From Escherichia coli (GTDB lineage Bacteria; Pseudomonadota; Gammaproteobacteria; Enterobacterales; Enterobacteriaceae): a stretch of DNA of 64,000 nucleotides. This document shows positions 42,113 through 52,287 of this stretch, in pieces. A model generated the notes under the pieces. That model was given only the letters and a program-made list of their open reading frames with translations, was not told the origin of the DNA and did not search any database. Each line of letters starts with the position of its first letter. The first letter of the stretch is position 1. The stretch is from the NCBI RefSeq assembly GCF_030013595.1, contig NZ_CP122768.1. One strand, written 5' to 3'. The translations under genes and the position numbers were made by a program.

Positions 42113-42496
42113 TCAGGCCTTCTCAAGCATGGCGTGCTTCTGCAGGCTCTGGATACTCAGCGTTAAGCTCATCAGACAATTTTCAAGCTTATCGGCGTTG
42201 ACGGTAATAACAGTCGGGCAATCATGGTGCCCACTCATCAAACATACTGCGGCTGTCGCTAATGCTTCTTCAGCATGATGAAGAGCACTCCACTCTTCCT
42301 GATCCAGATGAAGATTCAACCGCAGCGATTTATCGTGCAGTTCGCGATTCAGTTTAAAAAAGTTATCTCGTAGATGATTGCTTTCGCTGACGGACATGTA
42401 TCCTTTTGCCTTCCTCAGTTGCACGTATGCGGCGAGGTCAACGCGTGCGTCGATCAACCGGTTCAGCAGATCGATTCGCTGTCTGTCAACGAACAT
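42113..42496 (-). CDS. bssR: Biofilm regulator BssR (YliH)
   Basis: 127-aa ORF MFVDRQRIDLLNRLIDARVDLAAYVQLRKAKGYMSVSESNHL... Confidence 0.95.
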   Translation of the reverse strand: MFVDRQRIDLLNRLIDARVDLAAYVQLRKAKGYMSVSESNHLRDNFFKLNRELHDKSLRLNLHLDQEEWSALHHAEEALATAAVCLMSGHHDCPTVITVNADKLENCLMSLTLSIQSLQKHAMLEKA

Positions 42497-42708
42497 ACTT
42501 CGATCCTCCTCTTTCCAGCCTTATTGCAATTAAATAGTATGGCTATTTTTTGAGCAAAATGCTGTCCAGGATCAATTCTTCACGCCGAATTAACAAAATT
42601 TACATTTCCTTCGCCTCCGCCAGCGAATGAGATTGCGATACAAATTTTATCCAGAACTCTGTAGAATCCCTGCCCTGACCTTTCCTGTAACTGAATATTT
42701 TTTAAGCT

Positions 42709-44034
42709 ATGAGCAAAGTAACTCCCCAGCCGAAAATCGGCTTTGTTTCCCTTGGCTGTCCGAAAAACCTTGTCGATTCAGAGCGTATTCTCACCGAACT
42801 ACGCACTGAAGGTTATGACGTGGTACCGAGCTATGACGATGCGGACATGGTGATCGTCAACACCTGCGGCTTTATTGACAGCGCGGTACAAGAATCACTG
42901 GAAGCCATTGGTGAAGCGTTGAATGAAAACGGCAAGGTAATTGTGACCGGTTGTCTGGGGGCAAAAGAAGATCAGATCCGCGAAGTCCACCCGAAAGTGC
43001 TGGAAATCACCGGGCCTCATAGCTATGAGCAGGTTCTGGAGCACGTTCATCACTACGTGCCAAAACCGAAACACAACCCATTCCTGAGCCTGGTGCCAGA
43101 ACAAGGCGTGAAACTGACGCCGCGTCATTATGCCTATCTGAAAATTTCTGAAGGCTGTAATCACCGCTGCACCTTCTGCATTATTCCGTCTATGCGCGGC
43201 GACCTGGTGAGCCGTCCGATTGGCGAAGTGTTAAGTGAAGCGAAACGTCTGGTTGATGCGGGCGTTAAAGAGATTCTGGTGATCTCGCAGGATACTTCCG
43301 CCTATGGCGTCGATGTTAAACATCGTACTGGCTTCCACAACGGCGAGCCGGTAAAAACCAGCATGGTCAGCCTGTGCGAACAGTTATCGAAACTGGGGAT
43401 CTGGACACGTCTGCACTACGTTTACCCTTATCCGCATGTGGACGACGTCATCCCACTGATGGCAGAAGGCAAAATCCTGCCGTATCTGGACATTCCGTTG
43501 CAGCACGCCAGCCCGCGCATTCTCAAACTGATGAAGCGTCCGGGTTCTGTAGATCGCCAACTGGCGCGCATCAAACAGTGGCGCGAAATCTGCCCGGAAC
43601 TGACCCTACGCTCAACCTTTATTGTCGGCTTCCCTGGCGAGACAGAAGAAGATTTCCAGATGCTACTCGACTTCCTGAAAGAAGCGCGTCTGGATCGCGT
43701 TGGCTGCTTTAAATACAGCCCGGTTGAAGGTGCAGACGCCAATGCCCTGCCTGACCAGGTTCCGGAAGAAGTGAAAGAAGAACGCTGGAACCGTTTCATG
43801 CAGTTGCAGCAGCAGATTTCCGCCGAGCGCCTGCAAGAGAAAGTGGGCCGTGAAATTCTGGTGATTATCGACGAAGTGGACGAAGAAGGTGCGATTGGTC
43901 GCAGCATGGCAGATGCACCGGAAATCGACGGCGCGGTTTATCTCAATGGTGAAACCAACGTTAAGCCGGGTGATATCCTGCGTGTGAAAGTCGAGCACGC
44001 CGATGAGTACGATTTGTGGGGTAGCCGGGTTTAA
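42709..44034 (+). CDS. rimO: Ribosomal protein S12 methylthiotransferase RimO (radical SAM)
   Basis: 441-aa [31 protein letters not shown]...; CNHRCTFC radical-SAM cluster. Confidence 0.97.
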
Positions 44035-44218
44035 TTAATCTTAAGGCAGATCTAACAAGGATATTGTTCTTCGATCTGCCTCTGCTACCCTTCCCGATGT
44101 CCTACCCTTACGCACAAAATCCCCTGACGCATAAATCGAGAAAAATGAATCGTACTCGAGGCAACTCTCACTTTTTCACACCAAATTAAAGTTTTGATCG
44201 CAATTACTTGAAATAAGC

Positions 44219-44244
44219 GTAATGGTTACTATAGTAAACATTAC
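44219..44244 (+). promoter_or_regulatory. 26-bp near-perfect palindrome (GTAATGGTTACTATAGTAAACATTAC) just upstream of the toxin gene; candidate autoregulatory operator
   Basis: Dyad-symmetric with 2 symmetric mismatches, core TACTATAGTA, ending about 15 nt before ATG 44260 and overlapping the likely -10 and SD region. Confidence 0.5.
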
Positions 44245-44259
44245 CACAAGGATGGATGT

Positions 44260-44646
44260 ATGGGTGTGTATAAGGCAAGACGATTCAGCCAAAGCACGAA
44301 AAAACTTGGTATTCACGATAAAGTTCTCATGGCTGCCGCTGAAGAAGTGATGCAGGGCATATGGGAGGCTGATTTAGGTAGCGGTGTCATCAAAAAACGT
44401 TTACCCCTCCAACAAGGAAAGAGTGGTGGAGCCAGAACAATTATCTTTTTTAAATCAGCAAATCATGTGTTTTTTTATGATGGTTGGTCCAAGAGTGGTC
44501 TAAGCAGTAAAGGAACCAAAGAAATCGAAGATGATGAACTGGCGGCCTACAAAAAAATGGCAAATGCATTTCTGGCCTTTAGCAATAAGCAAATAGAGGA
44601 TTTGATCGAAACTGGCTTTTTGATTGAGGTGAAAAATGAGCGATAA
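44260..44646 (+). CDS. Putative type II toxin, RelE/ParE-superfamily-like (motif LIKKR...GKSGGxRTIIFF...DDEL...LIEV); not present at this locus in K-12
   Basis: 128-aa ORF MGVYKARRFSQSTKKLGIHDKVLMAAAEEVMQGIWEADLGSGVIKKRLPLQQGKSGGARTIIFFKSANHVFFYDGWSKSG...; AAGGATGG SD; overlaps the downstream HTH gene by 11 nt; looks about 40% GC. Confidence 0.75.
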   Translation: MGVYKARRFSQSTKKLGIHDKVLMAAAEEVMQGIWEADLGSGVIKKRLPLQQGKSGGARTIIFFKSANHVFFYDGWSKSGLSSKGTKEIEDDELAAYKKMANAFLAFSNKQIEDLIETGFLIEVKNER

Positions 44647-44965
44647 ATTACAAATGATGCTGGAAGATGCAAAGGAACTGAATGCACTGGGCCTGATGTC
44701 TGATAGTGAAGTTGATGCCATTGCCGTCATGGTCAAAGCTCGTGAAGTCAGCGCCCGTATAGCCAAAGTCAAATCAATGACGGGTGAAGAGATCAAAGCC
44801 ATCCGCACCCGATACGGCATGTCACAATCCGTGCTGGCACATACAATGGGAATGTCAAAAGAAAGTGTCTCGAAATGGGAACGTAATGAAATAAAACCGA
44901 GCGGCCCGGCATTACGTATTTTGAATACATTGGCAATAAAAGGGCCGGAAGTTTTTGCAAAGTAA
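44636..44965 (+). CDS. Putative antitoxin or transcriptional regulator with C-terminal XRE-type HTH (NadS-like architecture)
   Basis: 109-aa ORF MSDKLQMMLEDAKELNALGLMSDSEVDAIAVMVKAREVSARIAKVKSMTGEEIKAIRTRYGMSQSVLAHTMGMSKESVSKWERNEIKPSGPALRILNTLAIKGPEV; GAGGTG SD; translationally coupled to the upstream gene. Confidence 0.75.
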   Translation: MSDKLQMMLEDAKELNALGLMSDSEVDAIAVMVKAREVSARIAKVKSMTGEEIKAIRTRYGMSQSVLAHTMGMSKESVSKWERNEIKPSGPALRILNTLAIKGPEVFAK

Positions 44966-44995
44966 AATGTTTGCAAATGATTTACCACATTCATT

Positions 44996-45019
44996 AGTAC
45001 CCCTTGATTAAGGGGTACT
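44996..45019. terminator. Hairpin (AGTACCCCTT gatt AAGGGGTACT) between the HTH gene and convergent dgcI
   Basis: 10-bp perfect inverted repeat with a 4-nt loop between two convergent stops. Confidence 0.5.
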
Positions 45020-45034
45020 AACACTATTCTAATT

Positions 45035-46363
45035 CTACTGCCAGCTAATCTGCGCCCTGCCGTTTTTCTTACTTTTATACAGTCGCTCATCCGCCAGCAT
45101 TTTCAAGCGTTCGACGGTAGTACATTCATTTGAATGCGCTACACCGATACTGGTGCTTAAATTAATGCTTCCCACCTGGAAATGAACAATTTCTTTTAGA
45201 ATCGATAGCAACTCTTCCAGCGTTCCACCCGTATAAATCACCGCAAATTCGTCACCGCCGAAGCGGTAGACTTTACCTTTATCTACCGGGATCTGTGATT
45301 TAAGGATTTTCACCACTTTCATCAACACTTCATCGCCCAGCAAATGACCGAAGGTGTCGTTAATGTTTTTGAATTTATCGACGTCAAACAGGCACAAATA
45401 TCCGCCTTTTTCCGGCAGGGCTTTTAAATCTTCGTCAAAGGATTTTCTGCCCATCGCTTTGGTCAGGTCATCCAGGAACGCCGAGTTATACAGACTGTAG
45501 AGTTTTTTGACATCGGCAGCTGAAAAGAAAAGCCCGCCATCCAGTACGCGTTCAAAATGGTTATTAATGATGGCTTCTTTCTCCACAATACCACGATTAA
45601 TCACTCTGCGTACCAGATAGAGGCAACTGACACCCGATATCACTGCCACCAATGCGGCAAAGAAAATAATCAATGTACAGACCCGCAAATAAACATCTTT
45701 TTTATACGCAAATACGTACAATCCGGTCGGCAAATAGGCGAAGTGCTCCATCGCTTCCGAAACGGTGAAGATGGCGTTTTTAGCATTAAATTCATCACCG
45801 GTCACCGGTTTACCGTTCTTAAACAGAGAGAACATCAGGTTCTCGCTATCCATCGCCAGCGATTTTGACAGTAAAGAAAAACGCTCCAGACCAAGCAAAA
45901 ATATCAGACTGCGATTGTGAGTTACCGGATAGAGGTAATAGACGAAGGTTTTACCGTCAAAAGAGATAAACCCTGTATTTTTGACATGTCGATACTTCAC
46001 AATCTGCATAATATCTGCACAATAATTTTTCTCGAACTCCTTTACCTGAATACATTCGTCACTGGAAATCAGATAAGGACCGACATCGTGCAAATAAGAG
46101 GGTGAAACCGAGTCGGCGTAAGCTGTGCGTAAGCCAACCAACAGCTGTTCCTCCGTGGGATTTAGCGTGTTGATAAGATCAATTGCCACGCTACGCCGAT
46201 ATTCAGCAATATTTGCCACCGCAAAAGCAGTATCAATAACGGACTGTTTCAGGTCATACACCCGTTCCTTTACCATTTGAGTGTAGTTCCCGCAGGCAAC
46301 TGCTGAAATCATGATAAAAATCAGCAGACTGACTGTAAGTACGAACTTATTGATTCTGGACAT
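45035..46363 (-). CDS. dgcI: Diguanylate cyclase DgcI (YliF), GGDEF domain
   Basis: 442-aa [30 protein letters not shown]...; C-terminal GGDEF region (RFGGDEF). Confidence 0.95.
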
Positions 46364-46370
46364 ACGTAAA

Positions 46371-48719
46371 CTACTCTTTTACTAATTTTCCACTTTTATC
46401 CCAGGCGGAGAACGGCATGGGTTTCTGGTACAGATACCCCTGAGCCTGAACACATCCTAATTTGATTAATTCGCGCGCAACGTCTTCGCTCTCTACGCCT
46501 TCCGCAATCACCGGGATCCGGTTATAGCGTGCCAGATCGAAAATAATGCGCACAATTTTTCCCGCAGTACCGAAAATATCGCCGGTAAATTGTGAGTCCA
46601 CCTTTATGCTATCTGGATTAATTTCATAAAAACGTTTCAGGTTTGACAAACCGGTGCCAAAGTCATCAATCGATATCCGTACCCCTTGTTTACGCAGTTG
46701 TTCAATATTGAGATAAAAATGTTCATTAATTCGCTCGATCACGGTTTCAGTGATCTCAACACAGAGGCTGTTCGCCTTCAGGCCATTTTCCTCCATGATG
46801 GTGGTAAAACGCTCATGAAAGTGTGGTTCGTTTAACTGCCAGGGCGAAACATTAATATGCAGTAAGAAATCATCCTTCAGCGATGCACGCTGACTAAAAT
46901 GTCTGAATTCACCCATTGCCGTTTTAATAATCTGATAACCCAGCTCATTGATAAACCCGATATCTTCAGCAATGGTAATGAACTTCAGCGGTGAAATGAT
47001 CCCCCGCTCCGCAGACACCCAACGGCACAACGCCTCCGCGCCCAGAATGGCGCGGGTGTTAATATCAACGATCGGTTGATAGACGAGGAATAGTTCGCCA
47101 ATTTCCATTGCATGGCGAATATTACGCGCAATCCAGATATTCTCTTCTATTTCGTTGAGTTTCGCGTCATCACAGAAAATAAACTCGGAGAACATATGGT
47201 CACGGATACTGGAAATCGCCAGTTTCAGTTTTTCTGCGTAACTCCAGGCGTTTTCTCCCTGCAAAGGTTCACAAATGGCAGACTTATGGATGCGCAGATT
47301 GCGGTAGCCAAAGCTGCTGTCAAAATCGTTTATCATCGCTATTTTACGGGTAAATGTCTGTACATTTTCCCGGCACAGAAGTAAATAGAGATCGGCATTG
47401 AATGTCACGATATCGCAGCATTGCGCATATTTCTCGGCAATTCGCTGACACAATTTCCTGACGATTTTATTGCGTTCATCAACACCAAACACCGCTTCCA
47501 CGGCTTCCAGACCACACAGTTTGATGATCCCCACAGCCAGATACTGATTATTGTTGGACTCAATAATCGCCATATTTTTAATAAAACCGCTTTCCTGATC
47601 GTAAGAGATCAGTGAGAGCAATTTATTTGACCGTTCAATTTCGGCATCTTTCATTTCCGCGATCGAATTTTTGATGCTGATAATCTCTTTCGCATCGCCT
47701 TCGCGAATTTTCAGAGCCTCGATCTGATCCGTTGAGTCGGGCAAAAACGCTAGCGTATTAACCAGCTCGGTCATTTCAGAAAATTGCCGACGGAACACAC
47801 GAGTGGTCATTAAATAAACCACCAGCAATACGATAATAATGAAAGCAAACGGCAGATAAAAAAGTTTATCTGATGCGTTCAATAAATTACCGCCAGGATA
47901 ATAAAAATAGATTTCGAATAATGCGTTGTTTGGCACCGCTGATGTTTTTTCGATATATTCAGTATCGACAGAATCAATAATATTATAATTACCTTCGCTA
48001 TTATAAATAATCAGTTTTTCACGCGCGAGTTGATTCTTGGCAATGATCTCATGGCCTTGTTTCAAAAATAGAACTTCATCATTAGCGCTGATTTGATCAA
48101 GATACTCGTTCAGATATCGCCAGTTTAAATCGACATGTATTTTATCCACCGCTAACAAATCGTGATCTTTGCCGTTGATGCGTAGCGTAAAAGAGATACA
48201 TTTTTTACCCGGACGATCAAAGCAATTGTAGGCCGGATTCCAGCTGTTGTTAGAGTCATCTGAAGCCACCGACCATGGTCGTTTCGATGGATTAAAATCG
48301 GCAAAAATAACCCGCCCTGACTCGTCGACAAGCGGTCCATTTACTTCTTCCTGATGATAAACAACGATTTTATCATTCGCCCTCCGCGAAAAGAGATAAT
48401 ATTTATTATCATCAAGTACCAGTCCCACCGAGTCTAAAAATGGCATCATTTCCATTTTAAGGATCACAGCGCGTTGAATCTCCTCTGTATTTTTTAATAA
48501 ATACAGTGAGTCCTTTAATGTCAGGGCCGAACGTTCAATATCTTTAAAGAAATAGCCAACGTTTTTCTGAATAAGTTCAAAGCGGCTATCGGCACGTTTT
48601 ACCGCGCGTTCCGATACCAGTTGATAGTTAATGATGAAAAAAAGGCCAATAAATGACAGTGCTGCCAATAAAAATAAAATTATCAGCCTTATCTTTATCT
48701 TTTCGTATAAACTCAGCAT
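46371..48719 (-). CDS. pdeI: c-di-GMP phosphodiesterase PdeI (YliE), EAL domain
   Basis: ORF 46371..48797; ATG at 48719 (track frame) gives [34 protein letters not shown], 782 aa; C-terminal EAL region. Confidence 0.93.
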
Positions 48720-48896
48720 GTTAATACATTTAACAAAATAACTGTCTGAACGCTGTGCCGCTGCAAAAACAGTCCCTTGCTGCGGCTTTTTAACCAAATT
48801 ACCCGATTCTACAAAATCAGCAGAAAGTTACAACACTTGCTTAGGGCAATAATTTCCTGTGAGGTGATTACCCTTTCAAGCAATATTCAAACGTAA

Positions 48897-49808
48897 CTAT
48901 CCTTTAATTTTCGGATCCAGCGCATCGCGTAAACCATCGCCCAACAAATTGAACGCCAGTACGGTCAGAAAAATAGCCAGGGCCGGAAAAACAGCGACAT
49001 GCGGCGCGATAACCATATCCGCTCGTGCCTCATTGAGCATTGCTCCCCACTCTGGTGTCGGCGGCTGCGCACCGAGGCCGAGAAATGACAGGCTGGCGGC
49101 AGAGATAATCGAGGTGCCAATGCGCATGGTGAAAAACACCACGATAGAAGAGACGGTCCCAGGCAAGATATGACGCAACAAAATGGTCATATCGCTGGCA
49201 CCAATACTGCGTGCTGACTCAATAAAGGTTTGCTGTTTCAACACCAGCGTGTTGCCGCGCACCAGCCGGGCAAACGCGGGGATGGAAAAAATGGCGACTG
49301 CGATAATCACGTTAGCAATGCCGCTTCCCAACACCGCAACAACAGCGATCGCCAGTAAAATACCCGGGAAGGCAAACAGCACATCGCAAATGCGCATGAT
49401 CAGCCGATCCCACCAGCCTTCATAATATCCAGCCAGCAAGCCCAGCAACGTCCCGATCGCCGCACCGATAAACACGGCAAACACGCCCGCCGCCAGCGAG
49501 ATTTGCGCACCAACCAAGACACGGCTGAAAATGTCGCGCCCCAGTGAATCGACACCAAACCAGTGCTGCAAAGAAGGTCCGTTATTCAGATTGTCATAAT
49601 CAAAATAATTTTCGGCGTCATAGGGAGCGATCCAGCGTGCAAAAATGGCCACCACAATCAATAAAATAACGAACAATGCGGCGGTCATCGCCATATGCTG
49701 ACGGCGAAATCGTCGCCAGAATTCATGCCACGGTGTACGTACCTGGTCAGGTTTGACCAGTGGCATGGCGTTTAACACCGCCTGACGTCGCCAGTTAAAT
49801 AGTCGCAT
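48897..49808 (-). CDS. gsiD: Glutathione ABC transporter permease GsiD
   Basis: 303-aa [37 protein letters not shown]... Confidence 0.96.
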
Positions 49809-49810
49809 CC

Positions 49811-50731
49811 TTACTTGTACCTGATAGCCGGGTTAATGGCGGCGTAAAGCACATCCACCACTAAGTTGATAAGAATAAATTCCAGCGAGAAAAGCAGAAT
49901 TTCCGCCTGAATCACCGGGTAATCGCGCATTTCTACGGAGTCAACGAGTAAGCGTCCAAGTCCGGGCCAGTTGAAAACTTTCTCCACCACGATGGAACCA
50001 CCGAGCAAGAAGCCAAACTGTAAGCCCATCATGGTCACTACCGGGATCATCGCGTTGCGTAGCCCGTGTTTGAGGACAACCCAGGTTTCGCTCACCCCTT
50101 TCGCCCTCGCGGTACGCATATAATCTTCGCTTAAAACATCGACAAACGACGCGCGGGTAAAGCGCGCCATCACGGCTGCCACTGCCGCGCCGAGCGTCAG
50201 GGAGGGTAAAATGTAGTGCTGCCAACTGTCTGCTCCCACGGTAGGCAGCCAGCCCAGTTCAACGGAGAATACCTGAATTAAAAGCATCCCCAGCGCAAAT
50301 GCCGGAAACGAGATCCCCGACACCGCAATGGTCATACTCAATCGATCCGGCCAACGATTACGCCAGACGGCGGCGATAATTCCCGCCGCCATACCAAATA
50401 TCACCGCCCAGACCATACTGGTTATGGTCAGCCACAGCGTTGGCATAAAGCGGCTGGCAATCTCATCGCCAACCGGACGACGCGACACCATCGACAGGCC
50501 AAAATCCCCCTGCACAGCATTGCTGATATAGTGCCAGAACTGGTGATACAGCGGCTGATCCAACCCCAGCTGCTGACGCACCAGTTCTATAACCTGCGCA
50601 TCAGCTTCGGGCCCGGCAATCAATCGCGCCGGATCGCCGGGCAGCATATGGACAAATAAAAACACCAGCACCGAGACGATAAACAGCGTCGGAATCAACC
50701 CCAGCAAGCGTTTGATAACGTAATTAAGCAT
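49811..50731 (-). CDS. gsiC: Glutathione ABC transporter permease GsiC
   Basis: 306-aa [40 protein letters not shown]... Confidence 0.96.
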
Positions 50732-50748
50732 TCCACTCCCTGCGTTGC

Positions 50749-52287
50749 TTATTGCAAATCCGCGTCTTCAAAGCTGAAGCCGGTGTCTGGCATGATCCAA
50801 AAACCGGTCAGGTTTTTACTGTGTGCCGACACCAGTTTTTCTACCACCAGCGGGATCCACGGCGACTCTTGCCAGATGATATCCTGCGCCGCCTTATATA
50901 AACGGGTCTTTTCTGCCGGATCATTAGTTTTCAGTGCCTGAGCCAGGAAGTCATCCACCTGTTTATTGCTGTAAAACGCGGTATTAAACAGCGTCGGTGG
51001 CCAGTTCTGCGAGGCAAACAGCGGCGATAGTGCCCAGTCCGCTTCGCCGGTTGAAGCCGACCAGCCAGTGTAGAACATCCGCACGCCGCTCTCTTTTTGC
51101 CCTTTACCTTCAACTTCTGCCGCCCGCTGTCCGGCATCCATCGCAGTCACCTGGGCTTTAATCCCGATCTGCGCTAACTGCTGCTGGGTAAATTGCAGCA
51201 CTTTCTGCGCGGTGCTGTGGTTATGTGACGACCACAGCGTGGTACTGAAACCGTTGGGATATCCCGCCTCTTTCAGTAATTCGCGCGCTTTCACTGGATC
51301 GTAAGGCCACGGTTTATAACTTTGCGCGTAGGCGATACTCGGCGGTACCACACCAGTAGCTGGCGTTGCATAGCCCGCGAAGGCTACTTTCACCAGCGCC
51401 GGGCGGTTAATGGCGTAATTCAGCGCCTCACGGACCTTCGGGTTATCGAACGGCTTTTGCGTCACGTTCATACTGATATAACGCTGCATAATTGACGGAC
51501 TGGCCATCAACTCGATATTTTTGTTTTTCTCCAGCAGTGCGGCCTGCTCGTAGGGAATGGGGAAAGCAAACTGCGCTTCACCGGTTTGCAGCATTGCCGC
51601 GCGGGTATTGTTATCCGCCACCGGACGCCAGGTTATGCTGTCCAGTTTGGGCAATCCTGGCTGCCAGTAACCCGCGAATTTTTTCACCTTCACAAAATCG
51701 GTCTGATTCCAGGTATCCAGTTCATACGGCCCGGTTCCCACCGGATGAAAACCAATCTCCTTGCCATATTTTTCCAGCGCTGCCGGCGAAATCATCGCGG
51801 TCGCCGGATGGGCAAGAATATTAATAAACGCTGAGAACGGCTGTTTGAGGGTAATCTTTACCGTTGTTGGATCGATCGCTTCCGTTTTGGCAATATTCTT
51901 ATACAGGTTGTAGCGTTTAAGATGATTCGCCGGATCGCTGGCCCGGTCCAGATTCGCTTTTACCGCCGCTGCGTTGAAGTCGGTGCCATCCTGGAATTTA
52001 ATGCCTTCCCGCAATTTCACGGTGTAAGTAAGGCCGTCATCGGAAACGGTATAACTCTCCGCCAGCACGTTTTTCAGTTTCATCTCTTTATCGAGACCGA
52101 ACAGCCCCTGGTAAAACGATTTCGCTACGGCCTGAGATAACGTGTCATTTGCGTCATACGGATCGAGCGTGGTGAAGTTCGATCCTACCGCCACCACCAC
52201 ATCTTTGGCAGCGAATGCACAAGATGCCATCAACGCTGTCGCAATGCCCAGCGCCACTAACCCACTACGGTGTACAGCTCTTGCCAT
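50749..52287 (-). CDS. gsiB: Glutathione-binding periplasmic protein GsiB
   Basis: 512-aa [51 protein letters not shown]... Confidence 0.96.

Follow-up and report, generated by a model that had tools for sequence, protein, structure and literature searches.

A two-gene module between rimO and dgcI of Escherichia coli, a probable chromosomal type II toxin-antitoxin operon of the HigB-2/HigA-2 (PF06296) family

A recent review of the RelE/ParE superfamily gives the name PF_RelE to the PF06296 family, counts HigB-2 of Vibrio cholerae among its members, and describes it by ribosome-dependent mRNA degradation and a toxin-first gene order (PMC11980606, 2025). In V. cholerae HigB-2 (VcHigB2), alanine at R51, R64, Y82 or K84 lowers the activity 170- to 3000-fold (PMC5416850), and K49 is also listed as an active-site residue (PMC10098735). 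The footprinted operator of its antitoxin, HigA2, is a single inverted repeat that begins downstream of the -35 box and covers the -10 box (PMC11006873). A second described pair is ToxP/AntitoxP of Coxiella burnetii plasmid QpH1: ToxP is toxic and inhibits translation, AntitoxP neutralises and binds ToxP and also binds the toxP promoter, and the K79E variant of ToxP is non-toxic in E. coli (PMC10098735). The present analysis concerns a related module of two genes, carried on a small islet between rimO and dgcI in a 64-kb stretch of an E. coli chromosome (NZ_CP122768.1, 64,000 nucleotides, hereafter the window).

We interpret this module as a chromosomal type II toxin-antitoxin (TA) operon of the HigB-2/HigA-2 (PF06296, ToxP/AntitoxP) family, with a probability of roughly 90%. 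Its sequence anatomy, family membership, fold, residue conservation, constant gene pairing and conserved operator core are established by the observations given below, while its proposed mode of action is read from the homologues VcHigB2 (PMC5416850) and ToxP (PMC10098735). The module comprises the following features:

44208..44235, + strand: sigma-70-type promoter TTGAAA-16-TATAGT, agreeing with 10 of the 12 consensus positions (promoter scan)
44219..44244, no strand assigned: putative operator, a 26-bp palindrome with halves GTAATGGTTACTA and TAGTAAACATTAC, 12 of 13 pairs, straddling the -10 box
44248..44252, + strand: Shine-Dalgarno sequence AAGGA of the toxin gene, 7 nt before the ATG (from the sequence)
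44260..44646, + strand: toxin gene, 128 aa, HigB-2/ToxP-type, RelE superfamily PF06296 (Pfam, alignment with ToxP, AlphaFold2 model)
44626..44631, + strand: Shine-Dalgarno sequence GAGGTG of the antitoxin gene, within the 3' end of the toxin gene and 4 nt before the ATG (from the sequence)
44636..44965, + strand: antitoxin gene, 109 aa, HigA-2/AntitoxP-type (HTH_3, profile against the PDB, alignment with AntitoxP)

The 128-aa protein matches Pfam family PF06296 "RelE" over its whole length (E = 7.9e-33, residues 1-124 against positions 1-120 of the 120-position model), and the same family was found in all 69 homologues for which precomputed Pfam domains were available. At the structural level, a profile built from 19 homologues matches the solved HigB-2 chains (E = 9e-5), and the AlphaFold2 (AF2) model of the toxin (predicted local distance difference test score, pLDDT, 86.9; predicted TM-score, pTM, 0.83) retrieves HigB2 chains as its first five Foldseek matches in the PDB, with probabilities of 0.97-1.00 and TM-scores of 0.44-0.62, the next match being the toxin of Streptococcus pneumoniae HigBA. 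When toxin homologues were searched by tblastn among plasmids, they were found on 209 records, including C. burnetii plasmids, on which the QpH1 match is CBUA0028, i.e. ToxP, whose partner AntitoxP is CBUA0027. No NCBIfam model matches the toxin. A PF06296-like protein, recorded as hypothetical, is also encoded by the temperate Escherichia phage PhiR12_3 of E. coli ECOR13 (PV340552.1, 4340-4657); it shares 37% identity with the toxin across 86% of the toxin length.

Membership of PF05016, the family of E. coli K-12 RelE and ParE, was considered and rejected in favour of a HigB-2-like assignment: PF05016 is absent among the Pfam matches of the toxin up to E = 10. This result also bears on the idea that the protein could be a ParE-like gyrase poison instead of an mRNA-cleaving RelE-type enzyme. 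RefSeq does name it a "RelE/ParE family toxin", RelE and ParE share a fold and are hard to tell apart by sequence (PMC11980606), and the weak fold matches of the model include ParDE complexes (E = 0.46 and E = 2.1). In sequence, profile and fold comparisons alike, however, the best matches are HigB-2 or ToxP, both translation inhibitors, and the basic RNase active-site residues are retained, so that a gyrase poison appears extremely improbable.

Concerning these residues, the profile alignment places K49, R51, R64, Y82 and K84 of VcHigB2 opposite K45, R47, R59, W76 and K78 of the window toxin. K45, R47, R59 and K78 are invariant across the 19 homologues; W76 is found in 18 of them, and the most distant one has a tyrosine.

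The 109-aa protein consists of an N-terminal region of about 46 aa followed by a C-terminal XRE helix-turn-helix (HTH) domain (residues 47-106), with the motif QSVLAHTMGMSKESVSKWERNE at residues 64-85 and a Pfam HTH_3 match at residues 53-94 (E = 3.4e-9). With a profile of ten cognate antitoxins, V. cholerae HigA-2 ranks first among the solved structures (E = 9e-11), residues 47-102 aligning with HigA-2 residues 38-93, and the N-terminal region sits where HigA2 has its toxin-neutralising segment. A fused AF2 model (toxin, (GGGGS)6 linker and antitoxin, built from 10 paired sequences and read as pLDDT and secondary structure) predicts two helices in this region, at residues 2-17 and 23-43, with a pLDDT of about 90. 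Two other assignments of the antitoxin were rejected, namely NadS (NF041265, 36.7 bits for a cut-off of 60) and MqsA (TIGR03830, CxxCG_CxxCG_HTH, 47.1 bits for a cut-off of 61.8, with a match limited to the HTH half, residues 35-106). The Pfam match to PF15731 MqsA_antitoxin is likewise weak (E = 5e-4), and the protein has no cysteine and cannot therefore have the CxxCG zinc motifs of MqsA. A literature search on NadS returned nothing relevant to antitoxins.

An initial annotation of this DNA, drawn up from the sequence without database searches, had proposed a DUF1044-type, RelE/ParE-like toxin with GKSGG-x-RTIIFF and LIEV-type motifs, followed by an XRE-type HTH protein of NadS or HigA-like type, and had suggested profile searches for both. 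The motifs are all present (GKSGGARTIIFF at residues 53-64 and LIEV at 121-124 in the toxin; the quoted HTH motif in the antitoxin), and the Pfam and profile searches put the two proteins in TA-type families (PF06296; HTH_3/HigA-2), PF06296 being the family formerly named DUF1044. The XRE-type HTH is borne out by the HTH_3 match. Two labels had to be narrowed: the toxin belongs to the RelE superfamily and is HigB-2-like, not a PF05016 member, and the antitoxin is best matched by HigA-2, NadS remaining below threshold.

The association of the two genes was analysed in ten loci: the window, one Xenorhabdus and one Providencia plasmid, two Kluyvera chromosomes and five metagenomic or genomic contigs. 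Each of the ten has the PF06296 gene first and, overlapping its end by 4-17 nt (11 nt in the window), a downstream HTH_3 gene coding for 102-113 aa. The gene neighbours are unrelated from one locus to another; two of the ten loci are plasmid-borne, and the Xenorhabdus plasmid locus adjoins replication genes. As for selection, the non-synonymous divergence (dN) from the relatives is 0.18-0.40 and the synonymous sites are saturated, so that most pairs give no dN/dS ratio; these values indicate that both genes are under purifying selection.

The region upstream of the toxin gene is the other conserved part of the module. A TTG-type -35 box and a TATAGT -10 box are found at the matching place in the Kluyvera, Xenorhabdus and Providencia loci. 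Palindromes of the quality of that at 44219..44244 occur twice in the 64-kb window, for an expectation of 0.05 in shuffled sequences, the other one being the 3' hairpin described below. The core of the putative operator, TTACTATAGTAA, is exactly conserved in seven of the ten loci, at a matching distance from the toxin start codon, and is found with one mismatch in an eighth; its outer positions vary and the GTA...TAC frame is kept. In the two loci that diverge most, L010 and L014, the -10 box is covered by a different palindrome. Outside the promoter/operator element, no alignment of the upstream DNA was obtained between loci.

Of these two most divergent loci, L010 carries a perfect 24-bp palindrome, TAACCATTATTATAATAATGGTTA (1947-1970), and after it AATGGTTACTATA, the same sequence as the left arm of the window palindrome, and L014 carries the palindrome ATAGCACTTAGTGCTAT over its -10 box (about 1965-1985). 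The operator sequence thus diverges while its layout is retained.

The upstream palindrome had already been noticed in the initial annotation and is real, with 12 of 13 pairs over the -10 box. The same is true of the type II TA layout it described: toxin gene first, 11-nt overlap and palindrome are all present, and the operator core is conserved in relatives. By analogy with the V. cholerae operator and with the binding of AntitoxP to the toxP promoter, the antitoxin would be expected to act as an autorepressor at this putative operator.

These data also allow an opposite view to be weighed, in which the module would be a decayed or domesticated remnant, with a toxin that no longer cleaves mRNA and an HTH protein acting as a plain transcription factor, possibly on the neighbouring biofilm and cyclic di-GMP (c-di-GMP) genes dgcI, pdeI and bssR. 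It would account for W76 in place of the catalytic Tyr82 equivalent; chromosomal TA modules often decay, many truncated E. coli variants of the toxin are present in the protein database, and the locus does sit among bssR, dgcI and pdeI. However, a tryptophan that is the norm in 18 of 19 homologues, including plasmid copies beside replication genes, is a trait of the clade and not a lesion, and the other four active-site residues are invariant. The dN of both genes is far below the saturated dS, the gene pair stays together across unrelated neighbourhoods, and the sole strong upstream palindrome lies on the promoter of the module itself. Such a remnant is consequently judged very unlikely.

As a functional TA operon, the module would work as follows. 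The sigma-70 promoter at 44208..44235 would drive a single bicistronic mRNA, the first cistron of which would give the 128-aa RelE-fold toxin. By analogy with the homologues, free toxin would enter the ribosomal A site and cleave the mRNA under translation, with K45, R47, R59, W76 and K78 as its probable cleavage residues. The second cistron, overlapping the first by 11 nt and endowed with its own strong GAGGTG ribosome-binding site, would yield the 109-aa antitoxin, whose N-terminal 46 residues or so would bind and neutralise the toxin, and whose C-terminal XRE HTH would dimerise and bind the 26-bp palindrome over the -10 box, leading to repression of the operon. Should antitoxin synthesis stop or the antitoxin be degraded, free toxin would be expected to arrest translation and growth.

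Several observations weigh against this interpretation. The similarity to VcHigB2 is weak: when the toxin alone was used as a phmmer query against the PDB, nothing was found at E <= 1, and the fold TM-scores to HigB2 are 0.5-0.6. The window toxin is 18 aa longer than the 110-aa VcHigB2 and has a longer C-terminus, with two helices, and the important Y82 of VcHigB2 corresponds to W76. The antitoxin N-terminus is modelled as two helices, as compared with a helix and a strand in toxin-bound VcHigA2. Finally, no PADLOC defence model matches the toxin, and no study of the rimO-dgcI islet was found in the literature.

The distribution of the islet was analysed in 5,426 complete E. coli genomes, by megablast with the junction and with the islet alone. 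The full segment is present in 1,129 of these genomes (about 21%), and nearly all the remaining ones have a 347-bp junction of the K-12 type. With the islet alone, 1,128 full-length matches were obtained, at 98.6-100% identity. The carriers include O157:H7, many strains of which have the islet at 98.8% identity, and enteroaggregative E. coli (EAEC) 042. The exact sequences of both proteins are already in public collections: RefSeq describes the toxin as "type II toxin-antitoxin system RelE/ParE family toxin" (WP_000539521.1) and the antitoxin as "helix-turn-helix domain-containing protein" (WP_001280945.1), and the UniRef name of the toxin is "Addiction module toxin RelE". The module is thus of an ordinary, already known kind, since its exact toxin is publicly labelled as a TA toxin and its family is well characterised. 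In a 2009 PSI-BLAST survey, the O157:H7 strains Sakai and EDL933 were scored without a HigB or RelE homologue (PMC2654758, Table 2); as O157:H7 carries the PF06296 module at 98.8% identity, older inventories of E. coli TA systems missed it.

The patchy presence in about 21% of the E. coli genomes, which resembles that of accessory defence genes, could suggest that the module, with its biochemistry unchanged, has been selected as an abortive-infection defence against phages and not for stabilisation or selfish persistence. Toxins of the RelE/ParE superfamily are indeed discussed as defence toxins (PMC11980606), and the HTH protein weakly matches HTH components of PADLOC systems. On the other hand, the toxin has no PADLOC match, the locus lies outside any defence island, amid housekeeping and c-di-GMP genes, and its relatives are found beside plasmid replication genes, a classic addiction context, ToxP/AntitoxP being itself on QpH1. 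A selected role in phage defence is therefore considered unlikely, though it keeps some weight.

In E. coli strain STK78-E (L003, 2259-6980), an IS1 insertion sequence lies directly after rimO and gsiD comes immediately next; dgcI, pdeI and any islet are missing, and a second IS1 is located upstream near yliI. This arrangement has the appearance of a loss of the c-di-GMP genes through IS1-mediated deletion. Strain BS-01 (L015, 2297-3171) at first seemed to have a toxin-only allele, which was dropped as an artefact of poor assembly: this RefSeq "complete genome" has long T, C and A homopolymer runs across the islet and a stop codon within pdeI, and the 122-aa toxin call is spurious and the antitoxin uncalled. 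Shorter E. coli versions of the toxin, of 73-108 aa, are found on long contigs (P0013, P0024, P0025, P0034, P0038 and P0052). They may be truncated or mis-started alleles, which would fit an occasional decay of the toxin in some lineages.

At the level of the locus, the islet and its surroundings are organised as follows:

42709..44034, + strand: rimO, flanking the islet (open reading frame list)
44040..45035, no strand assigned: accessory segment of 996 bp, standing for the 42-bp spacer between rimO and dgcI in K-12 (alignment to K-12)
44044..44081, + strand: hairpin directly after the rimO stop codon (inverted repeat; -16.2 kcal/mol, z = -2.6)
44994..45021, no strand assigned: hairpin with a perfect 12-bp stem, TTAGTACCCCTT/AAGGGGTACTAA, between the stop codons of the antitoxin gene and dgcI
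45035..46363, - strand: dgcI, flanking the islet on the other side (open reading frame list)

In K-12 MG1655, rimO and dgcI are adjacent and convergent, as had been stated initially, and homology to K-12 extends through 44039 and resumes from 45036. The 1-kb islet delimited at first as 44035..45034 is thus real, with boundaries a few bases off those found here. Its two co-directional open reading frames of 128 and 109 aa, with their 11-nt overlap, agree with the open reading frame list. The 42-bp spacer of K-12 holds a hairpin of its own (CAGGCCGG...CCGGCCTG), and neither allele can therefore be a simple deletion of the other. The comparison of rimO-dgcI junctions across genomes, advised at the outset, opposes the islet to this spacer, both junction types being found.

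The GC content of the islet is 41.6%, vs. 52.7% for rimO and 50.6% for the whole window; the "lower GC" first attributed to it holds in these two comparisons, but dgcI (43.6%) and pdeI (41.7%) are equally low. Mobility signatures (direct repeats at the ends or target-site duplication, IS element, integrase) were looked for at the islet and none was found, and no RNA family was matched in an Rfam search of 43900..45200 at the E-value threshold. The neighbourhood is made up of housekeeping and c-di-GMP genes and is not a defence island.

Concerning the two hairpins, that at 44044..44081 may form the end of the rimO transcript, and that at 44994..45021, with fold z-scores of -3.4 on the + strand and -4.25 on the - strand, may act as a bidirectional terminator. 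A U-tract is lacking at both and the terminator scan called neither.

The homology between E. coli and Kluyvera is limited to 44209..44965, i.e. from the promoter to the antitoxin stop codon. In Kluyvera georgiana and K. sichuanensis (L006, 2501-3206; L008, 2501-3207), the module adjoins gsiD (compare 42113..50988 in the window), and in K. sichuanensis it stands between bssR and gsiD, both on the - strand, oriented as in E. coli and with neither rimO nor dgcI-pdeI in between. The DNA identity between E. coli and Kluyvera is 69-70% for the module and 77% for gsiDC. This shared location and these identities hint at a long residence of the module in the bssR-gsiD neighbourhood, with loss from most E. 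coli lineages, and argue against a recent insertion.

Since the orientation of the chromosomal copy between bssR and gsiD is kept in both Escherichia and Kluyvera, it could have a role beneficial to the host and not be merely selfish, for example, if so, in phage defence or through cross-talk with the convergent dgcI transcript. Within the HigB-2/HigA-2 family assignment, the enterobacterial PF06296 clade could moreover be a functionally distinct sub-type of HigBA2, its clade-level traits being the tryptophan for the catalytic tyrosine, the extra C-terminal helix, the predicted two-helix N-terminal domain of the antitoxin and the shared TTACTATAGTAA core; such a sub-type might not have the cleavage specificity of HigBA2 or its way of toxin neutralisation. 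This more specific proposal of a distinct and possibly host-beneficial clade is distinctly unlikely as it stands.

The significance of the locus goes little beyond its correct annotation, as one more RelE-superfamily toxin in the accessory genome of about one fifth of E. coli. The protein encoded downstream, at present a "helix-turn-helix domain-containing protein", can be named the cognate antitoxin of HigA-2 type. For experimental work, K-12 lacks the islet and provides a clean host for tests of the module, and the conserved operator core is a ready site for electrophoretic mobility shift assays or reporter constructs.

When the module is compared with MqsR/MqsA and NadS, the HTH of the antitoxin resembles, at a sub-threshold level, the C-terminal domain of MqsA and NadS, whereas the window toxin is not an MqsR and the antitoxin is devoid of CxxCG motifs. 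With RelE/RelB of K-12 and HigB/HigA of Rts1, it has in common the superfamily of RelE/ParE (BECR-fold) ribosome-dependent mRNA interferases (PMC11980606). K-12 RelE belongs to PF05016 and Rts1 HigB to PF05015, and the window toxin matches neither. Rts1 higBA has the toxin-first order of the window module, while in relBE the antitoxin gene comes first.

ToxP/AntitoxP shares with the window module the Pfam family and a toxin-first overlapping operon. The two toxins are 36% identical over their full length (E = 5e-24), K79 of ToxP aligning with K78 of the window toxin, and AntitoxP is 33% identical to residues 10-108 of the antitoxin, part of the N-terminal region included. ToxP differs in retaining a tyrosine where the window toxin has Trp76, and the pair is located on plasmid QpH1, whereas the window copy is chromosomal, between rimO and dgcI.

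As for HigB-2/HigA-2 of V. cholerae, a superintegron copy (PDB 5JAA, 5JA8 and 5J9I), it is distinguished by a toxin identity of 10-16% in structural alignments, by Y82 in place of W76, and by the 18 additional residues and two C-terminal helices (residues 91-106 and 109-118 of the model) of the window toxin. Its operator is TGTACGC-N5-GCGTACA vs. the 26-bp palindrome with the TTACTATAGTAA core, and its HigA-2 N-terminus is a helix and a strand vs. the two helices predicted in the window antitoxin. It nonetheless provides the best solved match for both the toxin model and the antitoxin profile, and has in common with the window module the basic active-site residues, the toxin-first order, an inverted-repeat operator over the -10 box, putative in the window module, and an antitoxin with a C-terminal XRE HTH preceded by an N-terminal region, which is neutralising in HigA-2 and, by analogy, probably also in the window antitoxin.

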